A DNA stretch of 64,000 nucleotides from the NCBI GenBank assembly GCA_964583645.1, contig CAZOWR010000001.1, positions 34-64,033 on the forward strand, given 5' to 3'. Positions 8,900 through 56,102 of this stretch are shown here, one piece after another (the stretch's first letter is position 1; every line of letters begins with the position of its first letter). The DNA comes from an uncultured Enterobacteriaceae bacterium. Lineage in GTDB: Bacteria; Pseudomonadota; Gammaproteobacteria; Burkholderiales; SG8-39. The position numbers and the translations under genes were made by a program. Under the pieces are notes generated by a model. That model was given only the letters and a program-made list of their open reading frames with translations. It did not search any database and was not told where the DNA came from.

Positions 8900-9975
8900 A
8901 CCGGTTCTACGGCGCCGGGGGCTGGAGCGCGATCGCTGCCTTCGCCGCGATCGCGTTCCTCGTCTTTCCGCTGCTCAGCCTCGCGGTGCCGCAGGGGAGC
9001 GCCTTGCACGTCTCGCAGTACTGGGTGACCCTGATCGGCAAGATCATGTGCTACGCGATGGTGGCGATCGCGATGGACCTGATCTGGGGCTACGCGGGGA
9101 TCCTCTCGCTCGGGCACGGCCTGTTCTTCGCGCTCGGCGGCTACGCCATGGGCATGTACCTGATGCGCCAGATCGGCCGCGAGGGGCAGTACCAGTCCGA
9201 GCTCCCCGACTTCATGGTGTTCCTCGACTGGAAGGAGCTGCCCTGGCACTGGTGGAACACCGACCAGTTCTGGTGGGCGGCGCTGCTGGTGGTGCTGGTC
9301 CCCGGCCTGCTTGCCTTCGTGTTCGGCTTCTTCGCCTTCCGCTCGCGGGTGAAGGGCGTGTACTTCTCGATCATCACCCAGGCGCTCACTTTCGCGGCGA
9401 TGCTCGCGTTCTTCCGCAACGCCATGGGGTTCGGGGGCAACAACGGCTTCACCGACTTCAAGCGCATCCTCGGCTTCGCCGTCACCACGCCGCAGACGCG
9501 CATCGGCCTGTTCATGGCCACCGCGGCGGCGCTCCTCGGCACGCTGCTGCTGGCGCGCTGGATCGTGACCTCGAAGCTCGGGCGCGTGCTCACCGCGATC
9601 CGCGACGCCGAGGCGCGGGTCGCCTTCTGCGGCTACAACACCGTGCACTACAAGCTCGCCGTGTTCACGCTCTCGGCGGTGCTGTGCGGCATCGCCGGCG
9701 CGCTCTACGTGCCGCAGGTCGGCATCATCAACCCGAGCGAGATGTCGCCCGCCAACTCGATCGAGATCGCGATCTGGGCGGCGCTCGGCGGGCGCGGCAC
9801 GCTGGTGGGGCCCATGCTCGGCGCGGGCGTGGTCAACGGCGCCAAGAGCTTCTTCACCCAGGCGTTCCCGGAGTACTGGCTGTACTTCCTCGGCCTGATC
9901 TTCATCCTCGCGACGCTCTACCTGCCGCAGGGCCTGGGGGGGCTGGCGCGGCAATGGCGGCAAAGGCGCGCATGA
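8896..9975 (+). CDS. urtC: urea ABC transporter permease
   Basis: Inside track ORF 8272..9975. ATG 8896 overlaps the urtB stop (ATGA). LivM-type permease (ILSLGHGLFFALGGYAMG). Confidence 0.85.
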   Translation: MNRFYGAGGWSAIAAFAAIAFLVFPLLSLAVPQGSALHVSQYWVTLIGKIMCYAMVAIAMDLIWGYAGILSLGHGLFFALGGYAMGMYLMRQIGREGQYQSELPDFMVFLDWKELPWHWWNTDQFWWAALLVVLVPGLLAFVFGFFAFRSRVKGVYFSIITQALTFAAMLAFFRNAMGFGGNNGFTDFKRILGFAVTTPQTRIGLFMATAAALLGTLLLARWIVTSKLGRVLTAIRDAEARVAFCGYNTVHYKLAVFTLSAVLCGIAGALYVPQVGIINPSEMSPANSIEIAIWAALGGRGTLVGPMLGAGVVNGAKSFFTQAFPEYWLYFLGLIFILATLYLPQGLGGLARQWRQRRA

Positions 9976-10784
9976 GCGCGAGCGCGGTGGCGGCCAACGA
10001 GAGCGCCACGCTCGGCCGCGTCTCGAGCGGCGAGCTCGACACCACGCACGGCGCGGTCCTGTACCTGGAGGACATCAGCGTGAGCTTCGACGGCTTCAGG
10101 GCCCTCGACCGGCTGTCGCTGTCGATCGACGTCGGCGAGCTGCGCTGCGTCATCGGCCCCAACGGCGCGGGCAAGACCACCATGATGGACGTCATCACCG
10201 GCAGGACGCGGCCCGACGCGGGCACGGCGTTCTTCGGCCAGACCATCGACCTGACGCGCCTGACGGAAGCCGAGATCGCGCACGCCGGCATCGGCCGCAA
10301 GTTCCAGAAGCCGACCATCTTCGAGCGCCACAGCGTGTTCGAGAACCTCGAGCTCGCCATGAAGGCCGACAAGCGGGTCTTCAGCACGCTGTTCGCGAGG
10401 CTGACCGGCGAGCAGCGGGACCGCATCGCGGAGACCCTCGAGCTGATCCGGCTGCAGGACAGCGCCGCGAGGACCGCCGGAGAGCTCTCCCACGGCCAGA
10501 AGCAGTGGCTCGAGATCGGCATGCTGCTCGTGCAGGAGCCCAGGCTGCTGCTGCTCGATGAGCCGGTCGCGGGCATGAGCGACGAGGAGACCGAGCGCAC
10601 CGGGGAGCTGTTCCTCTCGCTCGCCGGCAGGCACTCGCTGGTCGTGGTCGAGCACGACATGGCCTTCATCGAGAGAATCGCGCGCAAGGTCACGGTGCTG
10701 CACGAGGGCAGCGTGCTCGCCGAGGGGCCGATGGCGCAGGTGCAGAACGACCCGAAGGTGATCGAGGTCTACCTGGGACGCTGA
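9972..10784 (+). CDS. urtD: urea ABC transporter ATP-binding protein
   Basis: Inside track ORF 9048..10784. ATG 9972 overlaps the urtC stop (ATGA); an alternative ATG is at 9954. Walker A GPNGAGKTT, signature LSHGQKQWLEI, Walker B LLLLDEP. Confidence 0.85.
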   Translation: MSASAVAANESATLGRVSSGELDTTHGAVLYLEDISVSFDGFRALDRLSLSIDVGELRCVIGPNGAGKTTMMDVITGRTRPDAGTAFFGQTIDLTRLTEAEIAHAGIGRKFQKPTIFERHSVFENLELAMKADKRVFSTLFARLTGEQRDRIAETLELIRLQDSAARTAGELSHGQKQWLEIGMLLVQEPRLLLLDEPVAGMSDEETERTGELFLSLAGRHSLVVVEHDMAFIERIARKVTVLHEGSVLAEGPMAQVQNDPKVIEVYLGR

Positions 10785-23837: not shown

Positions 23838-23870
23838 CGGCCGGCGCCGGGGCGTTGGCATACCATTCGC

Positions 23871-23900
23871 GGAGGAATCGGGGTCAGACCCCGATTTCAC
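23871..23900. repeat. palindromic unit A (single) of the GGTCAGACC repeat family
   Basis: GGAGGAATCGGGGTCAGACCCCGATTTCAC. AATCGGGGTC / GACCCCGATT form a perfect hairpin 34 nt after the MauG-like stop. Confidence 0.7.
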
Positions 23901-34975: not shown

Positions 34976-35916
34976 GGACGCGCATCACGGCGCTGCTCGG
35001 CATCGAGCACCCGATCTTCCAGGCCGCGATGAGCTGGGCCTCGTCCAGTTCGGCGCTCGTGGTCGCGGTGTCGAACGCGGGCGGCATGGGCGTCATCGCC
35101 GGCGGCCCGATGCGCACGCCGGACTTCGCGCGCGCGCTCGCCGAGATCAGGGCGGGCACGGCCAGGCCCTGGGGCGTCAACATCCCGCTCACCAACCCGC
35201 GGGCTCGCGAACTGCTCGACATCGCCTACGAGGCGCGCGTCCCGGTGATGGTCGCCTCGCAGGGCGGGCCGCGCGAGCACCTGGCGCGCTTTCGCGCCAT
35301 CGGCACGAAGTGGCTCCACGTGGTGGCGTCGGTGGAGCACGCGCGCAAGGCCGAAGCCGCGGGCGTGGACGCGCTCGTCGTGGACGGCGCGGAAGCCGGC
35401 GGCCACCCGCCGCCCTCGGAAGTCGGCACGCTCGTCCTCGTGAGGCGGATCGTGCGGGCGACGCAGCTCCCGGTCGTGGCGAGCGGCGGCATCGCGGACG
35501 GCGCCGGCATCGCGGCGATGCTCGCGCTCGGGGCGGACGCGGTGCAGCTCGGCACGCGCTTCATCGCCACGCCCGAGGCGAGCGTGCACGAGAACTACAA
35601 GCGCGCGGTGCTCGCCGCGGACGTGGACGGCTCGACCATCGTGTCGCGCGGCCACCACCCGATCCGGCAGCTGAAGAACGCCTTCTCGGCGAAGTTCGAG
35701 GCGGCGGAGCGCGCGGGCGCTGCGCGCGAGACGCTGCAGGCCATCTTCGATGGCGCGAGCCTGAGGCAGGCGGCGCTCGACGGCGACGTCGAGTGGGGCA
35801 AGCTCGAGGCCGGGCAGTCGGCCGGGCTGGTCGAGGAGATCCTGCCCGCCGCCGAGGTCATGCAGCGCCTCGTGGCGGAGCTGGAGGAGGCGAGGCGGAG
35901 GCTTGCCGCGCTGTGA
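34972..35916 (+). CDS. nitronate monooxygenase (2-nitropropane dioxygenase-like, FMN TIM barrel)
   Basis: Tail of track ORF 34408..35916. GTG 34972 overlaps the MarR stop (GTGA). GIEHPIFQAAMSW, GAEAGGH, ASGGIADG, GTRF. Confidence 0.8.
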   Translation: MRTRITALLGIEHPIFQAAMSWASSSSALVVAVSNAGGMGVIAGGPMRTPDFARALAEIRAGTARPWGVNIPLTNPRARELLDIAYEARVPVMVASQGGPREHLARFRAIGTKWLHVVASVEHARKAEAAGVDALVVDGAEAGGHPPPSEVGTLVLVRRIVRATQLPVVASGGIADGAGIAAMLALGADAVQLGTRFIATPEASVHENYKRAVLAADVDGSTIVSRGHHPIRQLKNAFSAKFEAAERAGAARETLQAIFDGASLRQAALDGDVEWGKLEAGQSAGLVEEILPAAEVMQRLVAELEEARRRLAAL

Positions 35917-35977
35917 AGAAGCAGGGTCAGAGCACCGCTTCCGGACCGGAGAAAACGTGGCCTGACCCCGTTTTGCG
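35915..35977. repeat. palindromic doublet B of the GGTCAGACC repeat family
   Basis: GAAGAAGCAGGGTCAGAGCACCGCTTCC (35915-35942) and CCGGAGAAAACGTGGCCTGACCCCGTTTTGC (35946-35976). Degenerate relative to doublets D and E. Confidence 0.6.
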
Positions 35978-36695
35978 GGTCGAGGATCGCGGGGCGGTGC
36001 GCGTGCTGACCATGAACCGCCCGGAGAAGCGCAACGCGCTCAACACCGAGCTCACGCAGGCGCTGCTCGACGCGCTGCGCGCAGCCGACGCGGACGAGGC
36101 CGTGGGCTGCGTGGTGCTTACCGGCGCCGGGCAGGCATTCTGCGCCGGCGCGGATCTCGCGGAGTTCAAGGACCTCACGCCCGAGCATCAGGACCGGGTG
36201 GACGCGCGCGCCGAGCTCACGATGCAGCTGCACCTCGCGTTCTCGAAGATGGCGAAGCCCGTGGTCACGGCGATCAACGGCGCCGCGATGGGAGGCGGCG
36301 CGGGGCTCGCGATCGCGGGCGACCTCGCGCTGATGGCCGAAGGCGCGACGCTCGGCTACCCGGAGACGCACCACGGCATCGTCGCGGCGATCGCGATGGC
36401 GAACCTCGCGCGCCAGGCAGGACGCAAGGCGACCTTCGAGCTGCTCGCGCTCGGCGAGCCGATCGACGCCGAACGCGCGCTCGCGCTCGGCCTGGTCAAC
36501 CGCGTGGTACCCGGAGTCAGTTTGATGGATAAGACGCTCGCGCTCGCGGCGAAGCTCGCCGCGGTGCCTCGCCCCGCGATGGCGCTCACCAAGCAGCTCT
36601 TCCACGAGGTCGCGGACCTGCCGCTGGAGGCAGCGCTCAAACGCGGGGCCGAAGCGAACCGGCGCATGCGGGCCTTCCGCAAGGGGCAGGCATGA
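35973..36695 (+). CDS. enoyl-CoA hydratase/isomerase (crotonase) family protein
   Basis: Tail of track ORF 35310..36695. NRPEKRNAL, FCAGADL, AINGAAMGGG. The start is uncertain: TTG 35973, or GTG 35913 which would translate repeat B. Confidence 0.8.
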   Translation: MRVEDRGAVRVLTMNRPEKRNALNTELTQALLDALRAADADEAVGCVVLTGAGQAFCAGADLAEFKDLTPEHQDRVDARAELTMQLHLAFSKMAKPVVTAINGAAMGGGAGLAIAGDLALMAEGATLGYPETHHGIVAAIAMANLARQAGRKATFELLALGEPIDAERALALGLVNRVVPGVSLMDKTLALAAKLAAVPRPAMALTKQLFHEVADLPLEAALKRGAEANRRMRAFRKGQA

Positions 36696-37587: not shown

Positions 37588-38772
37588 GTGAAGCCGCTCG
37601 AGCACCTGACGATCCTCGACCTGTCGCGGGTGCTGGCCTGTCCCTTCGCCGGCATGATCCTCGCCGAGCTCGGCGCGCGCGTCATCAAGGTCGAGCAGCC
37701 AGGCATGGGCGACGAGACGCGCGGCTTCGAGCCGCGCCTCGCCCGGGACAGCGCCTACTACTTCGCCTGCAACCGCTCCAAGGCCTCGATCACGGTGGAC
37801 CTGCGCCACCCGGAAGGCCGCGCCATCATCCGCGCGCTCGCGCAGAAGGCCGACGCGCTGGTGGAGAACTTCCCGGTCGGCAGCCTCGCGCGCCACGGTC
37901 TGGACTTCCCCACCCTGTCTGCGCTCAACCCGCGCCTCGTCTATGTCTCCTGCACGGGCTTCGGCCAGACCGGACCCTACGCGCGCAGGAAGGGCTACGA
38001 CACGGTGTTCCAGGCGATGGGCGGCCTGATGAGCCTGACCGGCGAGAAGGGCGGCGGCCCGGTCAAGCCGGGGCTGCCGATCGCGGATCTCAGCTCGGGC
38101 CTGTGGGTGGCGATCGGGCTGCTGGCGCTGCTCGCGGGGCGCAGCCGCACCGGGCACGGGGCGCGCCTCGACTTCTCGATGCTGGACGGGCAGGTGGCGC
38201 TCCTCACGCTCGCCGCGGCGCGCTACTTCGCGCTCGGCGAGGTGCCGCCGCGCCTGGGCACCGAGCATCCCGGGCGCGTGCCGAGCGCCACCTTCCGCTG
38301 CGCCTGCGGCCGCTACGCGCACCTCACCGCGAGCGACCAGCACTGGGCGCCGCTGTGCCGCGCCCTCGGCCTGGAGAAAATGGGGTCAGACCACGATTTC
38401 TCGGACAACGCGAAGCGCGTGGCGCGCCGCGACGAGGTGATGGCGGCGCTGACCGAGGCGATCGCGGCGCTGCCGCGGGACGAGCTGATCGCGCGGCTGG
38501 ACGCGGCCGACGTGCCCGCAGGGCCGGTGCACGACGTCGCCGAGATCCTGGCCGATGCGCACGTGAGGGCGCGGCGGCTGGTGGGCAGCTTCGACTATCC
38601 CGAGGTGGGCGAATTCAGGGCGCTGGGCCTGCCCTACAGGTTCCTCGGCTGGGACGACCCGGAGATCGGGGCGCCGCCGGCGCTGGGCGCCGACACCGAG
38701 CGCGTGCTCTCGGAGATGCTCGGCTATTCCGCCGAGCGCATCGGCGAGCTGCGCGCGGCGAAGGCGATATGA
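37588..38772 (+). CDS. family III CoA-transferase (CaiB/BaiF)
   Basis: 394 aa. LTILDLSRVLACPFAGMILAELGARVIKVE, NFPVGSL, GYDTVFQAMGGLMS. Confidence 0.85.
   Translation: MKPLEHLTILDLSRVLACPFAGMILAELGARVIKVEQPGMGDETRGFEPRLARDSAYYFACNRSKASITVDLRHPEGRAIIRALAQKADALVENFPVGSLARHGLDFPTLSALNPRLVYVSCTGFGQTGPYARRKGYDTVFQAMGGLMSLTGEKGGGPVKPGLPIADLSSGLWVAIGLLALLAGRSRTGHGARLDFSMLDGQVALLTLAAARYFALGEVPPRLGTEHPGRVPSATFRCACGRYAHLTASDQHWAPLCRALGLEKMGSDHDFSDNAKRVARRDEVMAALTEAIAALPRDELIARLDAADVPAGPVHDVAEILADAHVRARRLVGSFDYPEVGEFRALGLPYRFLGWDDPEIGAPPALGADTERVLSEMLGYSAERIGELRAAKAI
38373..38400. repeat. palindromic unit C (single), embedded in-frame in the CoA-transferase CDS
   Basis: GGAGAAAATGGGGTCAGACCACGATTTC. 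The 19 nt GGGTCAGACCACGATTTC(+G) are identical to unit E1. Encodes EKMGSDHDF. Confidence 0.6.
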
Positions 38773-46771: not shown

Positions 46772-47209
46772 ATGCAGGAGCACAGCTTTCTGCTGCGGGA
46801 AGGGCTGTGGCGCGCCGAGGGGGAGTTCATCGACGGCGCCGGCACGTCGAGTGCGGTGGAAGGCGAGGCGCACATCCGCCACTATCCGGAGAAGTGGATC
46901 TACGAGGGCGTGCTGCGCACGCGCGGCGCGAAGCCGGCCGAGCACCGCACGCGCTACGAGATCCAGCCCTTCCCGCCGGGCAACTTCGCCACCGGCTGGA
47001 CCTCGAGCAGCGCCTCCATCGGCACGCTGCACGGGCGCTTTCTCATCGTCGGCGACGCGATCCTCTCGGTGTTCGAGTCGGCGACCGGCCGCTACCGCGG
47101 CCAGGACACCCTCCTGCGGCGCGACGAGCGGCGCTACAGCGCGCGCGGCGCGCTGTTCGACGGCCCGAAGCTGCTCTCGGCCTGGGCGATCGAGCTCACC
47201 CAGCCCTGA
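46772..47209 (+). CDS. hypothetical protein (beta-rich, lipocalin-like guess)
   Basis: 145-aa ORF with normal composition and GC3 bias. I recognised no family motif. Confidence 0.5.
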   Translation: MQEHSFLLREGLWRAEGEFIDGAGTSSAVEGEAHIRHYPEKWIYEGVLRTRGAKPAEHRTRYEIQPFPPGNFATGWTSSSASIGTLHGRFLIVGDAILSVFESATGRYRGQDTLLRRDERRYSARGALFDGPKLLSAWAIELTQP

Positions 47210-47269
47210 GAAACGGGGTCAGACCACGTTTTCCACGAACGAAAACGTGGTCTGACCCTATTTCCGGAG
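47208..47269. repeat. palindromic doublet D of the GGTCAGACC repeat family (best copy; bidirectional terminator-like hairpin)
   Basis: GGGTCAGACCACGTTTTC (47216-47233) and GAAAACGTGGTCTGACCC (47241-47258) are exact reverse complements with a 7-nt loop. The element fills the gap between two convergent stop codons. Confidence 0.8.
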
Positions 47270-49564: not shown

Positions 49565-51268
49565 GTGAACAAGCCGGTCGAGCCGCAGGTGGCGACGGTC
49601 ACGGGCGCCGAAGCCGTGGTGGCGGTGCTCAAGGCGCACGGCGTGGAGGTGATCTTCGGTCTGTGCGGCGACACCAGCCTGCCGCTGTACGACGCGCTCG
49701 CGCGCCTGCCCCACGGCATGCGCCACGTGCTGACGCGCGACGAGCGCCACGCCGCCTACATGGCGGACGGCTACGCGCGCGTCTCGGGGCGGGTCGGCGT
49801 CTGCGAGGGGCCGTCGGGGGGCGGCGCGACCTACATCCTCCCGGGTCTGGCCGAGGCGAACGAGTCCTCGGTGCCGCTGCTCGCGATCAACACCGACGTG
49901 TCGGTCGCCTCGCGCGGCCGCTTCACGCTCACCGAGCTCGACCAGGGCGCACTGATGAGGCCCGTCACCAAGTGGAACGCGGTGATCGAGCGCTCGCAGG
50001 ACATCCCGCGCACGCTGCGCGCCGCCTTCAACGCGATCACGACGGGACGGCCCGGGGCCGCGCACGTCGCGCTGCCGTTCGACGTGCAGAACGGGCCCGT
50101 GGAGCGCGCCGAGCTCTGGGGCGATCCGAGCCTCGCGCAGGCGCCTTCGCGCCGCGTCGCGCCCGACCCGTTGCACGTCGAGCTCGCGGCGAAGCTGCTG
50201 CGCCGCGCGAGTCGTCCGCTGCTCATCTGCGGCGGTGGCGTGGTGAGCTCCGGCGCCGAAGGCGAGCTCGCCGAGCTCGCCGAGCTGCTCTCGGCCCCGG
50301 TGGCGACCACGGTGAGCGGGCAGGGCGCGATTCCAGACGAGCATCCGCTCGCGGTGGGCGTGGTGGGCTCCAACGGCGGCACGCCGGAGACGCGCGCCGT
50401 CGTGGACGGCGCCGACCTCGTCTTCTTCGTCGCCTGCCGCGCCGGGTCGGTGACCACCGAGCGCTGGCGCCATCCCGCGCCCGGCAACGCGAGGATCGTG
50501 CACCTGGACGTCGATCCGCGCGCGATCGGCGCGAACTACAAGGTGGATGTGCCCCTGGTGGCGGATGCGAAGCTCGGCCTCGCGGCGCTCAACGAGGCGC
50601 TGGAGGGTACGAAGCGGCCGCTCGATGCCGCCGGCGTGCAGAAGGCCCGTGCGGCAAAGCTCGCCAGGTTCGAGCAGCTCGCGCGCTCCGACGAGGCGCC
50701 GATCCGCCCGGAGCGGGTGGTGGCGGAGATGGCCGCCGCGCTCGACCCGGACGCGATGCTCGCGCTCGATCCGGGGACGCCCTGCCCGTACTTCTCGGCC
50801 TTCTACCCGATCCGCGGCACCGGGCGGCGCGTGTTCTCGAACCGCGCGCACGGCGCGCTCGGCTACGCGATGTCGGCGGCGATCGGGGCGCATTTCGCGC
50901 GTCCCGCGGTGAAGACGGTGGCGGTGATGGGCGACGGCAGCTTCGGGATGTGCGCCGGAGAGCTGGAGACCGCGGTACGGCTCGGGCTCCCGGTCACTTT
51001 CGTCGTCCTGTCGAACGCGGTGTACGGCTGGATCAAGGCGGGGCAGAAGTCCGGCTACGGCGCGCGCTACTTCGCGGTGGACTTCGGCGTCACCGACCAC
51101 GCTCGCGTCGCCGAGGCCTACGGGCTGAAGAGCTGGCGCGTGACCGAGCCGCGCGAGCTGGGCGAGGCGTTTTCGGCCGCGTTCGCGCACGGCGGACCCT
51201 CGCTCGTGGACGTGGTCTGCCAGCCGCTGCAGGAGGCGCGCGCGCCGGTCTCGGAGTGGGTCGCGTGA
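49565..51268 (+). CDS. thiamine-diphosphate-dependent enzyme (acetolactate synthase large subunit-like)
   Basis: 567 aa. VTGAEAVVAVLKAHGVEVIFGLCGD at the N-terminus, and the GDGSF...N TPP-binding motif (VMGDGSFGM...LSNAVYG). Confidence 0.8.
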   Translation: MNKPVEPQVATVTGAEAVVAVLKAHGVEVIFGLCGDTSLPLYDALARLPHGMRHVLTRDERHAAYMADGYARVSGRVGVCEGPSGGGATYILPGLAEANESSVPLLAINTDVSVASRGRFTLTELDQGALMRPVTKWNAVIERSQDIPRTLRAAFNAITTGRPGAAHVALPFDVQNGPVERAELWGDPSLAQAPSRRVAPDPLHVELAAKLLRRASRPLLICGGGVVSSGAEGELAELAELLSAPVATTVSGQGAIPDEHPLAVGVVGSNGGTPETRAVVDGADLVFFVACRAGSVTTERWRHPAPGNARIVHLDVDPRAIGANYKVDVPLVADAKLGLAALNEALEGTKRPLDAAGVQKARAAKLARFEQLARSDEAPIRPERVVAEMAAALDPDAMLALDPGTPCPYFSAFYPIRGTGRRVFSNRAHGALGYAMSAAIGAHFARPAVKTVAVMGDGSFGMCAGELETAVRLGLPVTFVVLSNAVYGWIKAGQKSGYGARYFAVDFGVTDHARVAEAYGLKSWRVTEPRELGEAFSAAFAHGGPSLVDVVCQPLQEARAPVSEWVA

Positions 51269-51594
51269 CGCTCGAGCTCGAGCCCGGGCGCGGGCACCAC
51301 GACATGGGCGGGCTGCCGGCGGGCCGCGTCGAGCGCACCGAGCACGACTACGCGGAGTGGGAGCGGCGCGTGGACGCGATGATGGTGATCCTCTCGGGCG
51401 TGAAGGGCGGGCGCAAGCTCATGACGGTGGACGAGCTGCGCAAGAACATCGAGGCCATCGGCCCCGAGGCCTACGACCGCATGAGCTACTACGAGCGCTG
51501 GATCACCTCCATCACGCAGACCATGATCCAGCGCGGCGTCATCACCACCGAGGAGCTGGGCCGCAAGATGGAGGAGGTGAAGCGCCGTGCCTGA
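51265..51594 (+). CDS. nitrile hydratase beta subunit, N-terminal-half protein (SCNase-beta/ToyL-K-like split subunit)
   Basis: Tail of track ORF 49561..51594. GTG 51265 overlaps the upstream stop (GTGA). HHDMGG compares with the NHase beta IHD(L/T)GG start. AEWERRVDAMM, YYERWI. Confidence 0.65.
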   Translation: MTLELEPGRGHHDMGGLPAGRVERTEHDYAEWERRVDAMMVILSGVKGGRKLMTVDELRKNIEAIGPEAYDRMSYYERWITSITQTMIQRGVITTEELGRKMEEVKRRA

Positions 51595-51925
51595 ACCGGA
51601 GAAACAGGGTCAGACCACGATTTCCACGGAAGGAAGCGTGGTCGACCCCCGTTTTTCCGCAGGCGATCGGGTCAGGGTTCGCAAGGCGTATCCCCTGGGC
51701 CACATCCGCACACCGTTCTACGTGCGCGGGCTCACCGGCGAGGTGGAGCGCCTTTGCGGCAGCTTCCCCAACCCAGAGGAACTGGCGCAGATGCGCGACG
51801 GCCTGCCGCGCCGGCCGCTGTATCGCGTGCGCTTCGTGCAGCACGACCTCTGGCCCGACTACCGTGGCAGGGACGCGGACGCGGTGGAGGTCGAGATCTT
51901 CGAGCACTGGCTGGAGCCGGCGTGA
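51587..51925 (+). CDS. nitrile hydratase beta subunit, C-terminal-half protein
   Basis: 112-aa track ORF. The conserved part is FSAGDRVRVRKAYPLGHIRTPFYVRG...PLYRVRF...LW (SH3-like beta C-domain). The start is uncertain: GTG 51587, or the in-frame GTG 51638 preceded by GGAAGGAAG. Confidence 0.7.
   Translation: MPEPEKQGQTTISTEGSVVDPRFSAGDRVRVRKAYPLGHIRTPFYVRGLTGEVERLCGSFPNPEELAQMRDGLPRRPLYRVRFVQHDLWPDYRGRDADAVEVEIFEHWLEPA
51596..51660. repeat. palindromic doublet E of the GGTCAGACC repeat family
   Basis: CCGGAGAAACAGGGTCAGACCACGATTTCC plus GGAAGCGTGGTCGACCCCCGTTTTTCCGC. Starts 2 nt after the beta-N stop codon. Confidence 0.75.
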
Positions 51926-52518
51926 AGCAGGACCCGGGACGCTACCAGCCGCTCAGCTACTTCCAGCTCATGGAGGTGAGCCTGCGCGAGCTGCTGGTCG
52001 AGAAGGGCGTGACCACCGAGGCCGAGGTACGGGCGACGCTGGAGGACGTGCGGGCGCGCACCCCGGAACGCGGCGCGAGGGTGGTGGCGCGCGCCTGGAC
52101 CGACCCGGAATTCAAGGCGCGGCTGCTCGCCGACGGGACCAAAGCCTGCCAGGAGCTCGGCCTGGACGTGCCGGCCCTCAGGCTCGTGGTGGTGGAGAAC
52201 ACGCCGCGGGTGCACAACATGATCGTGTGCACGCTGTGCTCGTGCTATCCGCGGATGCTGCTCGGCCTGCCGCCCGACTGGTACAAGTCGCGCAACTACC
52301 GCTCGCGCGCGGTGCGCGAGCCGCGCGCGGTGCTCGCGGAATTCGGGCTGCGGCTGCCGGACGAAGTGCAGGTGAGGGTGCACGACTCGAGCGCGGACAT
52401 GCGCTACCTCGTGCTGCCGATGCGACCGGCGCAGACCGCAGGCTGGAGCGAGGAGCGGCTCGCGGGCATCGTCACCCGCGACTGCATGATCGGCGTGGCG
52501 GTGCCGGCGGTGAGCTGA
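51922..52518 (+). CDS. nitrile hydratase alpha subunit (cobalt-type VCTLCSC metal site)
   Basis: Inside track ORF 51754..52518. GTG 51922 overlaps the upstream stop (GTGA). VCTLCSCYPRMLLGLPPDWYKSRNYRSRAVREPR. Confidence 0.85.
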   Translation: MKQDPGRYQPLSYFQLMEVSLRELLVEKGVTTEAEVRATLEDVRARTPERGARVVARAWTDPEFKARLLADGTKACQELGLDVPALRLVVVENTPRVHNMIVCTLCSCYPRMLLGLPPDWYKSRNYRSRAVREPRAVLAEFGLRLPDEVQVRVHDSSADMRYLVLPMRPAQTAGWSEERLAGIVTRDCMIGVAVPAVS

Positions 52519-52537
52519 GCGCGGCAAAGTCCTCGCC

Positions 52538-53236
52538 CTGAAGAAGCTCCGCACGCCCACGCTCGAGCCGCTCGGCGACGCCGCCGCCTACGCGGAGTTC
52601 GCCGCGGCATTCGACCCCGAGGTGAACGGGGCGCTGCAGTCGGCGGCCAACGTGCTGCGCCAGCACGCGCCGGACTGGCTCACCGGCGTGGTACCCGCGC
52701 TCGCCGGCATCGCGCTGCACTTCGATGCCGACCACGCCGGGCTTCCCGCCGATCCGCTCGAGGCGTGCGCGCGCCTGCTCGAGGAGGCGCTCGCCGCGGC
52801 GCACAAGGCCCCGCCGGCACCGCGCCTGGTCGAGGTACCGGTGTGCTACGATCCCCAGTTCGCGCTCGACATCGTCGAGGTCGCCACCGCCACCGGCGTC
52901 GCGCCCGAAGACGTGGCGCGCCTGCACGCGGCCACCGAGCACCGCGTCCTCATGGTCGGATTCGCTCCGGGGCAGCCGTACATCGGCGGCCTGGACGCGC
53001 GGCTGCGGCTCCCGCGCCGCGCCACCCCGCGCACGCGCGTCGTCGCGGGGTCGGTGGCGATCGCCAACGACCAGACCGCGGTGTATCCGTTCGAGATCGC
53101 GGGCGGCTGGAGCGTCATCGGGCGCACGCCGCTCGCGGTGTTCGACCCGCGGCGCGAGCCGCCCAACCTGCTCGAGGCGGGCGACCGGGTGCGCTTCGTG
53201 CCGGTGTCGCGCAGCGAGTACGAGCGCCTGAAGTGA
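52538..53236 (+). CDS. pxpB: 5-oxoprolinase subunit PxpB (KipI / allophanate hydrolase subunit 1-like)
   Basis: Track ORF 52622..53236. The conserved N-terminal strand TLEPLGDAAAYAEF lies upstream of GTG 52622 in the same open frame. The only start-like codon after the in-frame TGA 52511 is CTG 52538. FAPGQPYIGG, YPFEIAGGW. Confidence 0.65.
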   Translation: MKKLRTPTLEPLGDAAAYAEFAAAFDPEVNGALQSAANVLRQHAPDWLTGVVPALAGIALHFDADHAGLPADPLEACARLLEEALAAAHKAPPAPRLVEVPVCYDPQFALDIVEVATATGVAPEDVARLHAATEHRVLMVGFAPGQPYIGGLDARLRLPRRATPRTRVVAGSVAIANDQTAVYPFEIAGGWSVIGRTPLAVFDPRREPPNLLEAGDRVRFVPVSRSEYERLK

Positions 53237-54252
53237 GCCTCAGGATCCTCAAGCCCGGCCTGCTCAGCACGCTGCAGGACCGCGGCCGCTTCGGCCTGCA
53301 GCACCTCGGCGTCGCGCCCGGCGGGCCGATGGACCGGGTGGCGCTCGCGCTGGCCAACGCGCTCGTGGGCAACGGCGCCGAGGAAGCCGCGCTCGAGATC
53401 ACGCTGATCGGCCCGGAGATCCTCTTCGAGAAGGACGCGCTGGTGGCGCTGTGCGGAGCGGAGCTCGAGGCGCGCTCCGGGGGGGCGGCTTTCCCACGCG
53501 ATCGTCCCGTGCTGGTGCGCGCCGGGACACGGCTCTCCGCCGGCCGCGCGCGGCGCGGCAGCCGCGCCTACCTGGCGGTGGCGGGCGGATTCGCGTGCGA
53601 CCCGGTGCTCGGCAGCCGCTCGACCTGCCTGCCCGCGCGCTTCGGCGGGCTGGAGGGCCGGGCGCTGCGCGCCGGGGACCTGCTTGCTCTGGCGCCGGAG
53701 GCCCCGGCGCAGGCCGCGGAGCGCTTCGCGCGGCTCGCGGCACAGGTGCGCGTGATCGACGGCCTGGAGAGCGTGCGCTGGTCGGCGCCCTCGCTCACGC
53801 TGCCCGAGGGCGAGGACATCGTGGCGCACGCCATGGAGGGCCGGCATTTCGCGCAGTTCGAGGCGGCGTCCCGGCGCGCGTTCTTCGAGTCGCAGTGGCG
53901 CGTCGCTCCGGACTCCAACCGCATGGGATTCCGGCTCATGGGGGCCACGCTCGCACGGGGCAAGGCCGCTGAGATACTATCGGAGCCGACCTGCCTGGGC
54001 ACGGTGCAGGTGCCCGCGGGCGGCGCGCCGATCGTCCTGATGGCCGATCACCAGACGACCGGGGGCTATCCGCGCATCGCCGAGGTGGCGGGCGCGGACG
54101 TGCCGTGCCTCGCGCAGCTCGCACCGGGCGCGCGCCTGCGCTTTGCGCGCTGCTCCCTGGAGGAGGCGAGGGCGCTGGGCCGCGCGCTGCGCGCGCGGCT
54201 GGACGCGGCGCTGCGCGCCATTGCCTGGCGGTACGGATATGAAGAGCATTGA
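53233..54252 (+). CDS. pxpC: 5-oxoprolinase subunit PxpC (KipA / allophanate hydrolase subunit 2-like)
   Basis: Tail of track ORF 52765..54252. GTG 53233 overlaps the pxpB stop (GTGA). LLSTLQDRGR, SNRMGFRL, ADHQTTGGYP. Confidence 0.8.
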   Translation: MSLRILKPGLLSTLQDRGRFGLQHLGVAPGGPMDRVALALANALVGNGAEEAALEITLIGPEILFEKDALVALCGAELEARSGGAAFPRDRPVLVRAGTRLSAGRARRGSRAYLAVAGGFACDPVLGSRSTCLPARFGGLEGRALRAGDLLALAPEAPAQAAERFARLAAQVRVIDGLESVRWSAPSLTLPEGEDIVAHAMEGRHFAQFEAASRRAFFESQWRVAPDSNRMGFRLMGATLARGKAAEILSEPTCLGTVQVPAGGAPIVLMADHQTTGGYPRIAEVAGADVPCLAQLAPGARLRFARCSLEEARALGRALRARLDAALRAIAWRYGYEEH

Positions 54253-54988
54253 CCTCAATTGCGACATGGGCGAGAGCTTCGGCGCCTGGAAGATGGGCGC
54301 GGACGCCTCGGTGATGCCCTACATCAGCTCGGCGAACGTCGCCTGCGGCTTCCACGCCGGCGACCCGGCGACCATCCGCGCCACCGTGCGCCTGGCGCTC
54401 GATCACGGCGTCGCCATCGGCGCGCACCCGTCGCTGCCGGACCTGATGGGCTTCGGGCGGCGCGCGATGCGCATCTCGCCGCAGGAGATGTACGACCTCG
54501 TCGTCTACCAGGCGGGCGCGGTGGAGGCCTTCGCGCGCGCCGCGGGCGCGCGGCTGCACCACGTCAAGTGCCACGGCGCGCTCTACAACATGGCGGCGAA
54601 CGACGCGGCGCTCTCGGAGGCGATGGTGAAGGCGGCGAAGGACCTGGGCTCGATGCTCTACGTGCTGTCGAACAGCAGGAACCACGCGATTGCGAAGCGC
54701 GCCGGGGTGCCGGTGGCGGGCGAGGTGTTCGCCGACCGCGGCTACTCCGACGACGGCACGCTCGCACCGCGCGATCGACCCGGAGGCATGATCGAGGACG
54801 CGGCGGCCGCGGTGAAGCAGGCGCTCGCGATGATCGAAGAGGGCTACGTCACCAGCCTCTCGGGCAAGCGCGTGCCGGTCTCGGCCGACACCATGTGCCT
54901 GCACGGCGACCAGCCCGGCGCGGTCGCGTTCGCCAAGGCGCTGAGGCAGGCTTTCAAGGAGAAAGGAATCACCGTTGCGGCCCCCTAG
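54239..54988 (+). CDS. pxpA: 5-oxoprolinase subunit PxpA (LamB/YcsF family)
   Basis: Inside track ORF 54143..54988 from ATG 54239. IDLNCDMGESFG, ANVACGFHAGDP, KCHGALYN. Confidence 0.85.
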   Translation: MKSIDLNCDMGESFGAWKMGADASVMPYISSANVACGFHAGDPATIRATVRLALDHGVAIGAHPSLPDLMGFGRRAMRISPQEMYDLVVYQAGAVEAFARAAGARLHHVKCHGALYNMAANDAALSEAMVKAAKDLGSMLYVLSNSRNHAIAKRAGVPVAGEVFADRGYSDDGTLAPRDRPGGMIEDAAAAVKQALAMIEEGYVTSLSGKRVPVSADTMCLHGDQPGAVAFAKALRQAFKEKGITVAAP

Positions 54989-56102
54989 ACTGTTCGCGCC
55001 GATCCAGCTCGGCGGCGTCACGCTTCCCAACCGCGTCGTGGTCTCGCCGATGTGCCAGTACTCGGCCGACGACGGCTGCATGGGCGACTGGCACCTGATG
55101 CACCTCGGCAGCCTCGCCTGCTCGGGCGCCGGGCTGATGAACGTGGAGGCGACGGGGGTGACGCGCGAGGGCCGCATCTCGCACGGCTGCACCGGCCTGT
55201 ACAGCGAGCACAACGAGGCGGCGATGCGGCGCGTGCTCCAGGCCTGCCGGCGCATCACCCGCTCGCCCTTCGGCATCCAGCTCGCGCACGCCGGACGCAA
55301 GGGCTCCGTGCAACCCCCTTTCCACGGCGGCAGGCCGCTCGGGGCGGGGGAGTCGCCGTGGCAAACCGTCGCGCCTTCGCCTGTCGCCTACGACAGCGGT
55401 TGGCATACGCCTCACGAGCTATCCGCACTCGAGCTTCGCCAGCTCGTCGATGATTTCGCCGCCGCGGTGAAGCGCGCGGCGGCGATCGGGTTCGACATCG
55501 TGGAGCTGCACTCGGCGCATGGGTACTTGCTTCATGAGTTCCTGTCGCCGCTCTCGAATCGGCGCGGCGATCGCTACGGCGGGAGCCTGGAGAACCGCAT
55601 GCGCTTTCCGCTGGAAGTCGCGCGCGCGGTGCGCGATCTCTGGCCGCGCGAGCGGGGACTGGGTGCTCGCCTCTCGGCGACCGATTACGCCGAGGGCGGG
55701 TTCAACCCGGAGGAAGCGGTCGCCTACGTGCGCGAGCTGCAGCGCATCGGCTTCGACTTCGTCTGCCTCTCCGGGGGCGGACTGGTGCCGCACCAGCGGA
55801 TCAAGGTCGAGCCCGGCTACCAAGTCGAGTTCGCGGCGAAGATCAAGCAGGCGGTGCCGATCGCGGTGCGCGCCGTGGGCATGATCGTCGATCCCGTTCA
55901 GGCCGAGGAGATACTCGCGTCCGGCAAGGCCGACATGGTGGCGCTCGCGCGCGCGCTGCTCGATGACCCGCGCTGGGTGTGGCACGCCGCGGAGCGCTTC
56001 GGCGTCAAGCTCGACTACCCGCCGCAGTACGCGCGCAGCCATCCGTCGGTGTGGCCGGGGGCGGCACTGGCTCGCCCACGGGCGGAAGTCGCGGCCGAGT
56101 AG
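54975..56102 (+). CDS. Old Yellow Enzyme-family NADH:flavin oxidoreductase
   Basis: 375 aa. PNRVVVSPMCQY, QLAHAGRK, HSAHGYLLHEFLSP, RLS..D. The TTG start overlaps the pxpA 3' end. Confidence 0.85.
   Translation: MRPPRLFAPIQLGGVTLPNRVVVSPMCQYSADDGCMGDWHLMHLGSLACSGAGLMNVEATGVTREGRISHGCTGLYSEHNEAAMRRVLQACRRITRSPFGIQLAHAGRKGSVQPPFHGGRPLGAGESPWQTVAPSPVAYDSGWHTPHELSALELRQLVDDFAAAVKRAAAIGFDIVELHSAHGYLLHEFLSPLSNRRGDRYGGSLENRMRFPLEVARAVRDLWPRERGLGARLSATDYAEGGFNPEEAVAYVRELQRIGFDFVCLSGGGLVPHQRIKVEPGYQVEFAAKIKQAVPIAVRAVGMIVDPVQAEEILASGKADMVALARALLDDPRWVWHAAERFGVKLDYPPQYARSHPSVWPGAALARPRAEVAAE

Follow-up and report, generated by a model that had tools for sequence, protein, structure and literature searches.

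A dispersed REP-like palindromic doublet where the genes for a nitrile hydratase beta subunit were already split, and its probable translation in frame

Split beta subunits are known from thiocyanate hydrolase (SCNase), with its alpha, beta and gamma chains, and from the toyocamycin nitrile hydratase (NHase) ToyJKL. Small palindromic repeats are usually seen as extragenic passengers or as regulators acting at the RNA level. Intragenic repetitive extragenic palindromes (REPs) are known, including dimers that encode 20-30 residues inside annotated open reading frames (ORFs), with the caveat that N-terminal REPs may go untranslated where the ORF really begins beyond them (Di Nocera et al. 2013, PMC3733652). 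The Rickettsia palindromic elements (RPEs; Ogata et al. 2000, summarised in PMC10969869) are palindromic, lie in frame in protein genes and add a fold-compatible peptide. Here we describe a palindromic doublet that brings these two subjects together. It lies in a 64-kb window of a single contig of a metagenome-assembled genome (MAG) of 72% GC, to the whole of which all positions below refer, and it sits exactly where the beta subunit of an NHase is divided between two genes.

The two halves lie on the forward strand and are recognisable as parts of one subunit, as a preliminary description of this DNA had proposed. The N-half gene of 109 amino acids (51265-51594, start GTG 51265, stop TGA 51592-51594) matches PF21006 NHase_beta_N with 70.5 bits, and the C-half ORF, of 112 amino acids in its long form (51587-51925), matches PF02211 NHase_beta_C with 82.7 bits over residues 19-111. 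Start of the second and stop of the first overlap in GTGCCTGA (51587-51594), with the geometry of the repeat-free GTGGCTGA junction of orthologues. A Shine-Dalgarno (SD)-like GGAGGAGG at 51570-51577, 9 nt upstream of GTG 51587, also encodes M-E-E of the N-half tail, whose KMEEV motif is conserved among orthologues. The doublet comes after the retained overlap, within the 5' portion of the C-half ORF, to which it adds 51 nt, or 17 codons, in frame. From GTG 51587 the ORF translates as V/M-PEPEKQGQTTISTEGSVVDPRF-SAGDRVRVRKAYPLGH, residues 2-22 being encoded by junction and repeat. The N-half stop, the opening GTG with its in-frame reading of the doublet, and the in-frame GTG 51638 preceded by GGAAGGAAG (51628-51636) are all as first described. 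We are confident that a dispersed REP-like repeat sits here at an older split junction; that it is translated by read-through from GTG 51587 we regard as probable rather than assured, judging from sequence comparison. Of the two candidate starts, 51587 and 51638, the comparative evidence leans towards the former, and both may operate.

As a structure the doublet is a 63-nt palindrome of two 26-nt arms, 77% complementary, around an 11-nt loop. The left arm (51597-51622) reads (E)KQGQTTIS in the C-half frame, the spacer occupies 51623-51633, and the right arm (51634-51659) holds GTG 51638 together with CCC CGT TTT (51647-51655), the codons for P-R-F. Its RNA is predicted to fold at -38.8 kcal/mol, against -17.3 +/- 3.0 for shuffled sequences (z = -7.1, with none of 200 shuffles as good), and the hairpin begins 2 nt past the N-half stop codon; arms and fold together bear out the palindrome as real. 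The SD-like string had been placed in the spacer between the units, and this is right for the part that lies in the loop, but in the predicted hairpin GGAAG (51632-51636) pairs with UUUCC and GTG 51638 lies in the stem. A consensus terminator scan did not report the doublet, and an intrinsic terminator was rejected as a candidate since the U run base-pairs with the left arm's A run, leaving no unpaired U tract. A programmed -1 frameshift was likewise rejected, as AAGCGCCGTGCCTGAACC preceding the hairpin holds no slippery heptamer (X XXY YYZ, 5-9 nt upstream). An Rfam scan of 51300-51900 returned no family for the doublet, its sole match being a chance-level sRNA at 51415-51475 (E 0.53).

The coding content of the doublet differs from that of its surroundings. 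It has 59% GC in a 72% GC window, and its right unit reads GTC GAC where the family consensus GTC TGA would put an in-frame stop, at the cost of base pairing. Both rare codons of the P-R-F motif stand out against the codon usage of the window genes, in which GC at third positions (GC3) is 94%: TTT accounts for 1 of 50 Phe codons and CGT for 3% of Arg codons, whereas repeat-free relatives encode the same motif as CCC CGC TTC. The use of CGT and TTT thus marks these codons as repeat DNA, so that translation must begin upstream of them. The peptide encoded by the repeat precedes residues 18-20, the first that can be aligned to solved beta chains, a position compatible with the fold; in an AF2 model of the C-half, residues 1-14 have a pLDDT below 50.

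The split itself is older than the repeat. Our comparison set comprised 80 genomic loci, all from soil Burkholderiales or Betaproteobacteria MAGs, and 112 metagenomic loci retrieved by the conserved N-half codons ATGATCCAGCGCGGCGTNATCAC, of which 97 contain the invariant Gly26 codon (window 51662) that served as anchor for junction distances. Stand-alone beta-C homologues number 1822, with a modal length of 95 aa, and the same two-gene split is present without any repeat in most of the 80 genomic and 97 metagenomic loci (more than 100 loci). The commonest repeat-free junction, found in 31 loci from several clades, is an 8-nt overlap (cGTGgcTGA; GTGGCTGA), its start 24 nt and its stop 19 nt before Gly26; one example, cGTGgcTGAgccccgcttc, encodes V-A-E-P-R-F. 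Other split classes have ATGA overlaps with longer MQPQFVTDYPAxAPRF heads. Since repeat-free orthologues are split alike, the repeat did not split the beta gene at the window locus, and the idea put forward in the preliminary description, that it had invaded the linker of a formerly fused gene, finds no support at this locus, the outcome being the one named beforehand as refuting it. The other suggestion made there, of a repeat filling the spacer between two genes already split, comes closer, being correct as to the pair but not as to the spacer: the repeat-free junction is an overlap, hence there was no spacer to occupy, and the doublet lies inside the C-half ORF. In neighbour-joining trees repeat-bearing and repeat-free junctions are intermingled, at a resolution too weak to count independent insertions.

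The arrangement in the window recurs. In six loci, the window and those we label L001, L002, L003, L031 and L112, a whole doublet follows an intact GTGnnTRA overlap in frame, and these loci have diverged to 65-76% protein identity. The distance from the stop to Gly26 is 70 nt in the window, L001 and L003, 88 nt in L002, 91 nt in L031 and 73 nt in L112. All six are 1 modulo 3, so that lengths have changed independently at least three times without ever putting the upstream GTG out of frame. This GTG arises from the rare Arg codon CGT, which all six retain, and at the canonical TGA position of the right unit the other five carry TGT, CGT or CGA. In L001 and L031 the doublet holds no ATG, GTG or TTG, and the only other in-frame start, a GTG, comes after the conserved Phe, 3 nt ahead of the Gly26 codon. 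L002, L003 and L112 have an AAGGA or GGAG string and an in-frame GTG arranged as in the window, a purine-rich spacer thus being present in four of the six. The arms are perfect in L001 and in L002, which differ in their cores.

More widely, the junction proves to be a hot spot for repeats of this family. Among the 97 anchored metagenomic loci the exact site of the junction is taken up by a doublet in about 24 and by a single unit in 8 (about 32 of 97), and across 1.53 Mb from 195 loci at least 41 exact repeat cores lie at junctions, as against about 21 in other places. The doublet spacer holds the stop/start overlap, ATGA or else GTGA or TTGA, in about 23 loci, an arrangement we call a loop junction, and units encode tails on both halves: N-halves end in, for example, ..RGQSPISARK* or ..RGLSPFSRRKR..*, and C-halves begin with MKSGSDPDF.. 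or MTAEKMGTVPIY. A single unit, AAATGGGGTCTGACCCCATTTTC, supplies in five loci (L084, L089, L097, L138 and L174) the ATG of the C-half (MGSDPIF..), the TGA ending the N-half (..KNGV*) and the Phe codon. In L075, a MAG locus (9857-10276), there is no stop, and a single fused beta ORF reads ..GRKMEEKSGSEPDFRRESQAVERKSGSDPDFSSLPVRFAIGERV.. across the junction; the linker between its domains, KSGSEPDFRRESQAVERKSGSDPDF, is encoded by a repeat doublet, and the same repeat-encoded linker is found in protein cluster P0121 (218 aa, 25 member sequences, both Pfam domains). The preliminary description had supposed that the element might donate translation signals or a peptide tail, and comparison supports this: units in orthologues give an ATG start, a TGA stop, C- and N-terminal tails and, in one locus, a fusing linker. 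In these relatives, the loop-junction, single-unit and fused loci, translation of the repeat family is, on the reading of their frames, unambiguous.

Repeat turnover at the junction is recent. The locus on metagenome contig Ga0137425_1000747 (L139) and its near-identical counterpart L171 share flanks identical at 250 of 257 and 259 of 260 positions (97-99.6%), yet the junction is a 92-nt doublet in the former and 31 nt of repeat-free sequence in the latter. The difference is a replacement of a segment and not a clean insertion. We also observed that the junctions of L016, L064, L065 and L116, about 40 nt before Gly26, are apparently repeat-free and still hold the best repeat-like match in the whole locus, for example GAAAAGCGTGGTTGACGCGCGATTTTC in L064; these may be decayed single units.

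The junction doublet is one of five sites of the same dispersed REP-like family in the 64 kb, which settles its membership of a repeat family. The units share the consensus GAAA(A/C)nGGGGTCAGACC(A/C)CG(T/A)TTTCC, and the chance expectation for the 22-mer arm matches is 0.00. The copies are multiple dispersed imperfect palindromes and paired units are inverted around a short spacer to form a long hairpin, as in REPs and REPINs; the same sub-families are found away from the junction in other MAGs. All sites are on the forward strand. The best-preserved doublet, which we used as family reference (GGGGTCAGACCACG / CGTGGTCTGACCC), lies at 47207-47268 directly after a TGA stop and is predicted to form a hairpin of -45.4 kcal/mol (z -6.8). 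Another doublet, at 35913-35980, follows directly 3' of a GTGA stop/start overlap and reads through as an N-terminal extension of about 24 aa on an enoyl-CoA hydratase ORF. In this ORF the ECH_1 match starts at residue 26 and a TTG at the end of the repeat is an alternative start, an ambiguity that parallels the NHase junction. A single repeat-like unit, GAGAAAATGGGGTCAGACCACGATTTC, lies at 38371-38400 in frame inside a CoA-transferase III gene (ORF 37588-38772), where it reads EKMGSDHDF. The Pfam match of that protein is unbroken over residues 4-370, so the unit has taken the place of native sequence without making the protein longer. The last site is a single self-palindromic unit, AATCGGGGTCAGACCCCGATT, at about 23870-23898. 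Three of the five copies overlap ORFs. On reading, the units at 47207-47268 and 51597-51659 show no GTAG, CTAC, CGTC or GACG tag.

We therefore take the element to be one copy of a REP/REPIN-like doublet family dispersed in uncultured soil Burkholderiales, lying at the junction of pre-existing, presumably translationally coupled N-half and C-half genes. It adds exactly 51 nt, is carried in the mRNA of the operon and is most likely translated, with initiation at GTG 51587, into 17 putatively disordered residues close to the N-terminus of the C-half; its right end encodes the conserved Pro-Arg-Phe that opens the beta-C domain. Read-through of this kind would yield the peptide PEPEKQGQTTISTEGS. 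The predicted hairpin buries GTG 51638 and most of the SD-like string, so that the C-half is probably made by ribosomes terminating at TGA 51592. These would re-initiate 5 nt upstream, and the elongating ribosome would then melt the hairpin. A tail of this kind would be tolerable, judging from its low pLDDT in the model and by analogy with SCNase alpha, which has about 31 extra N-terminal residues. The element may be tolerated here, or even useful.

Several observations weigh against initiation at 51587 and bear on the chief alternative to it, in which the C-half starts at the internal GTG 51638 with the GGAAGG string of the doublet spacer as its ribosome-binding site, while left arm and spacer remain untranslated between the cistrons and uncouple the two genes. 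This we consider possible, though distinctly the less likely course. It would yield a product of 95 aa, the modal length of homologues; the junction-copy spacer GGAAGGAAG is more purine-rich than the spacer of the 47207 copy, GAACGAAAA; and the combination of a purine-rich string and a downstream in-frame GTG in the window is matched by AAGGA or GGAG before an in-frame GTG in L002, L003 and L112. Loop-junction relatives truly start within the doublet spacer, which makes an internal start plausible in the window as well. The six loci are moreover related by descent, hence the arguments from frame and from CGT are not six independent trials; an open frame of 66 nt is unremarkable at 72% GC; a stable hairpin from 10 nt after the start codon could hinder initiation at 51587; and the relatives are all metagenome-assembled. 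On the other side, GTG 51638 and 5 of the 9 SD-like bases are paired in the -38.8 kcal/mol hairpin, the spacing from AGGA to GTG is merely 1-4 nt, and this GTG simply belongs to the repeat consensus CGTGGTC. The doublets of L001 and L031 have no start codon at all, and upstream of the internal GTG every change of length is by a multiple of three. Initiation at 51587 also retains the overlap geometry of repeat-free relatives, and it is this start that we continue to favour.

Other explanations concern the role or the history of the element more than its start codon. It would be rather unlikely, in our estimate, that the hairpin is retained as an RNA regulator, through ribosome stalling at TGA, stabilisation of the upstream mRNA or a strict coupling that keeps the halves at 1:1, with the peptide incidental. 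The hairpin is very stable and lies 2 nt past the stop; Liang, Rudd and Deutscher (2015) reportedly saw a lower yield of the upstream protein, through ribosome stalling, where a REP lay no more than about 15 nt from the stop codon. The strong enrichment of repeats at the junction and the perfect arms with differing cores in L001 and L002 fit such a role, and many REPs have been argued to act as RNA elements (Di Nocera et al. 2013, PMC3733652). However, most orthologues do without the hairpin, as does L171 next to its near-identical strain L139, the window copy has traded pairing (77%) for an open frame, and neither the terminator scan nor Rfam singled it out. Compensatory evolution of the hairpin, for which the arm differences among L001, L002 and the window seemed to speak, was downgraded, because the core variants GGGACAGACCACG and CGTGGTCTGTCCC are ordinary repeats elsewhere (L026, L064, L073). 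The differences may reflect sub-family identity; as they match sub-families seen elsewhere they offer no clean evidence of compensatory change, which also counts against a regulatory hairpin. We are more doubtful still that the repeat made the split in the first place, a unit with its TGA and its GTG or ATG having cut a fused beta gene into two coupled ones by landing in its linker, with the window copy a later elaboration. Equally improbable in its general form is the notion that the beta-splitting junction of the whole family is a domesticated repeat unit, remodelled by later turnover that extends the halves and occasionally re-fuses them. The repeat-free junction consensus TCGAAAAGCGTGGTTGAGGCCCGCTTC does resemble the unit CGAAAATCGGGGTCAGAGCCCGATTTC, the junction is within the top 5% of repeat-like matches per locus in 15% of repeat-free loci (top 1% in 7%), single units give both stop and start in five loci, and the junction uses A/T-ending codons, which are rare at a GC3 of 94%. 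Yet most repeat-free junctions are dissimilar (median empirical p 0.46), other split classes with an ATGA overlap and MQPQFVTDYP heads are not repeat-like, and splits are also present in thiocyanate hydrolase. The resemblance is possibly forced by the coding constraints of E-K-R-G-stop and V-x-E-x-R-F, or could instead attract the repeat by microhomology or gene conversion; it could thus explain homing or gene conversion, or else be the decay of old units or a coincidence of coding constraints. Least probable is that the insertion damaged the operon, leaving a decaying or poorly expressed C-half with a frame open by chance in GC-rich DNA. Long spurious ORFs are common in a window of 72% GC, but the three subunit genes are intact with overlapping junctions, the layout persists in six loci at 65-76% protein identity, a potential in-frame TGA has been removed, and the downstream alpha gene scores above the NHase-alpha cut-off.

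The operon around the junction comprises four co-directional genes with overlapping boundaries, all on the forward strand: a thiamine-pyrophosphate (TPP) enzyme gene (49565-51268), whose stop overlaps the N-half start, the two beta halves, and an alpha subunit gene (51922-52518) with a VCTLCSC metal site, which overlaps the C-half stop. The outer two of the three gene junctions are GTGA overlaps. The N-half alignment covers residues 3-95 of solved NHase beta chains in the PDB, and C-half residues 18-112 align with beta residues 118-211, the PDB beta chains aligning from residue 18-20 on. The alpha subunit matches PF02979 with 274.6 bits and TIGR01323 (NHase alpha) with 262.2 bits, above the cut-off of 249.85, whereas against TIGR03887, the SCNase gamma equivalog, it scores 237.8 bits, below the cut-off of 291.45. 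Separate NHase_beta_N and NHase_beta_C genes beside an alpha gene with a CxLCSC metal site identify the locus as a split-beta NHase. The neighbourhood is conserved: in the window (49565-56102) it includes the TPP enzyme, the split NHase, PxpB-, PxpC- and LamB-like (5-oxoprolinase-type) genes and an OYE flavin reductase, and L001 (1668-10739) has the same neighbourhood with an amidase and a glyoxalase_3 protein in addition upstream. Many relatives among proteins P0123-P0240 (e.g., P0127 and P0155, 199 aa) have two tandem NHase_beta_N domains in place of the single N-half, and P0157 (383 aa) is apparently a longer chimera.

The significance of the locus lies in the several roles that one repeat family takes on in related genomes. 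Its copies are read as protein, provide the stop codon of one gene and the start codon of the next, encode a conserved residue of the downstream domain and, in some genomes, re-join half-genes, so that gene fission, translational coupling and gene fusion form a natural series linked through a mobile-type repeat. Alleles with and without the repeat at strain level make this series testable. There is also a lesson for annotation, in that ORF length alone cannot call the starts of genes that begin just after such repeats.

In comparison with known enzymes, the N-half and C-half of the window align to SCNase beta (2dd4_B) and SCNase alpha (2dd4_A) respectively, the latter being naturally extended by about 31 residues at its N-terminus. 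The window halves are, however, closer to NHase beta than to SCNase, and the alpha subunit scores as NHase alpha, not as SCNase gamma. The genomic context, with its TPP enzyme, PxpB/C/A-like genes and OYE reductase, also sets the locus apart from three-subunit relatives, ToyJKL being likened to it by description only.

As to the repeat, the GTAG and CGTC REPs (PMC3733652) are like this family in being short palindromes, often dimers, usually found just after the stops of co-directional genes. The window family is without either tag, which makes it REP-like but places it outside those two super-families. It further differs from them in sitting at the overlapping stop/start of a split subunit, in supplying stop and start codons in relatives, and in that one orthologous site is occupied in many lineages by several of its sub-families. 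The RPEs (PMC10969869) are about 100-150 bp, specific to Rickettsia and scattered over many unrelated genes. Here, by contrast, a unit measures about 25-27 nt and a doublet 60-90 nt, the hosts are free-living soil Burkholderiales and the copies are concentrated at one gene junction, the likeness to RPEs being one of description only. REPINs, mobilised by RAYT transposases (Bertels and Rainey 2011, PMC3116915), likewise consist of two inverted units with a short spacer and are dispersed in genome-specific sub-families; they are described as extragenic, whereas three of the five window copies overlap ORFs. In-frame palindromic repeats are thus already established. What appears to be new is a repeat at the overlapping stop/start of a split subunit that writes stop and start codons and a conserved residue, that serves as a fusing linker, and that shows recurrent, polymorphic occupancy of one orthologous site.

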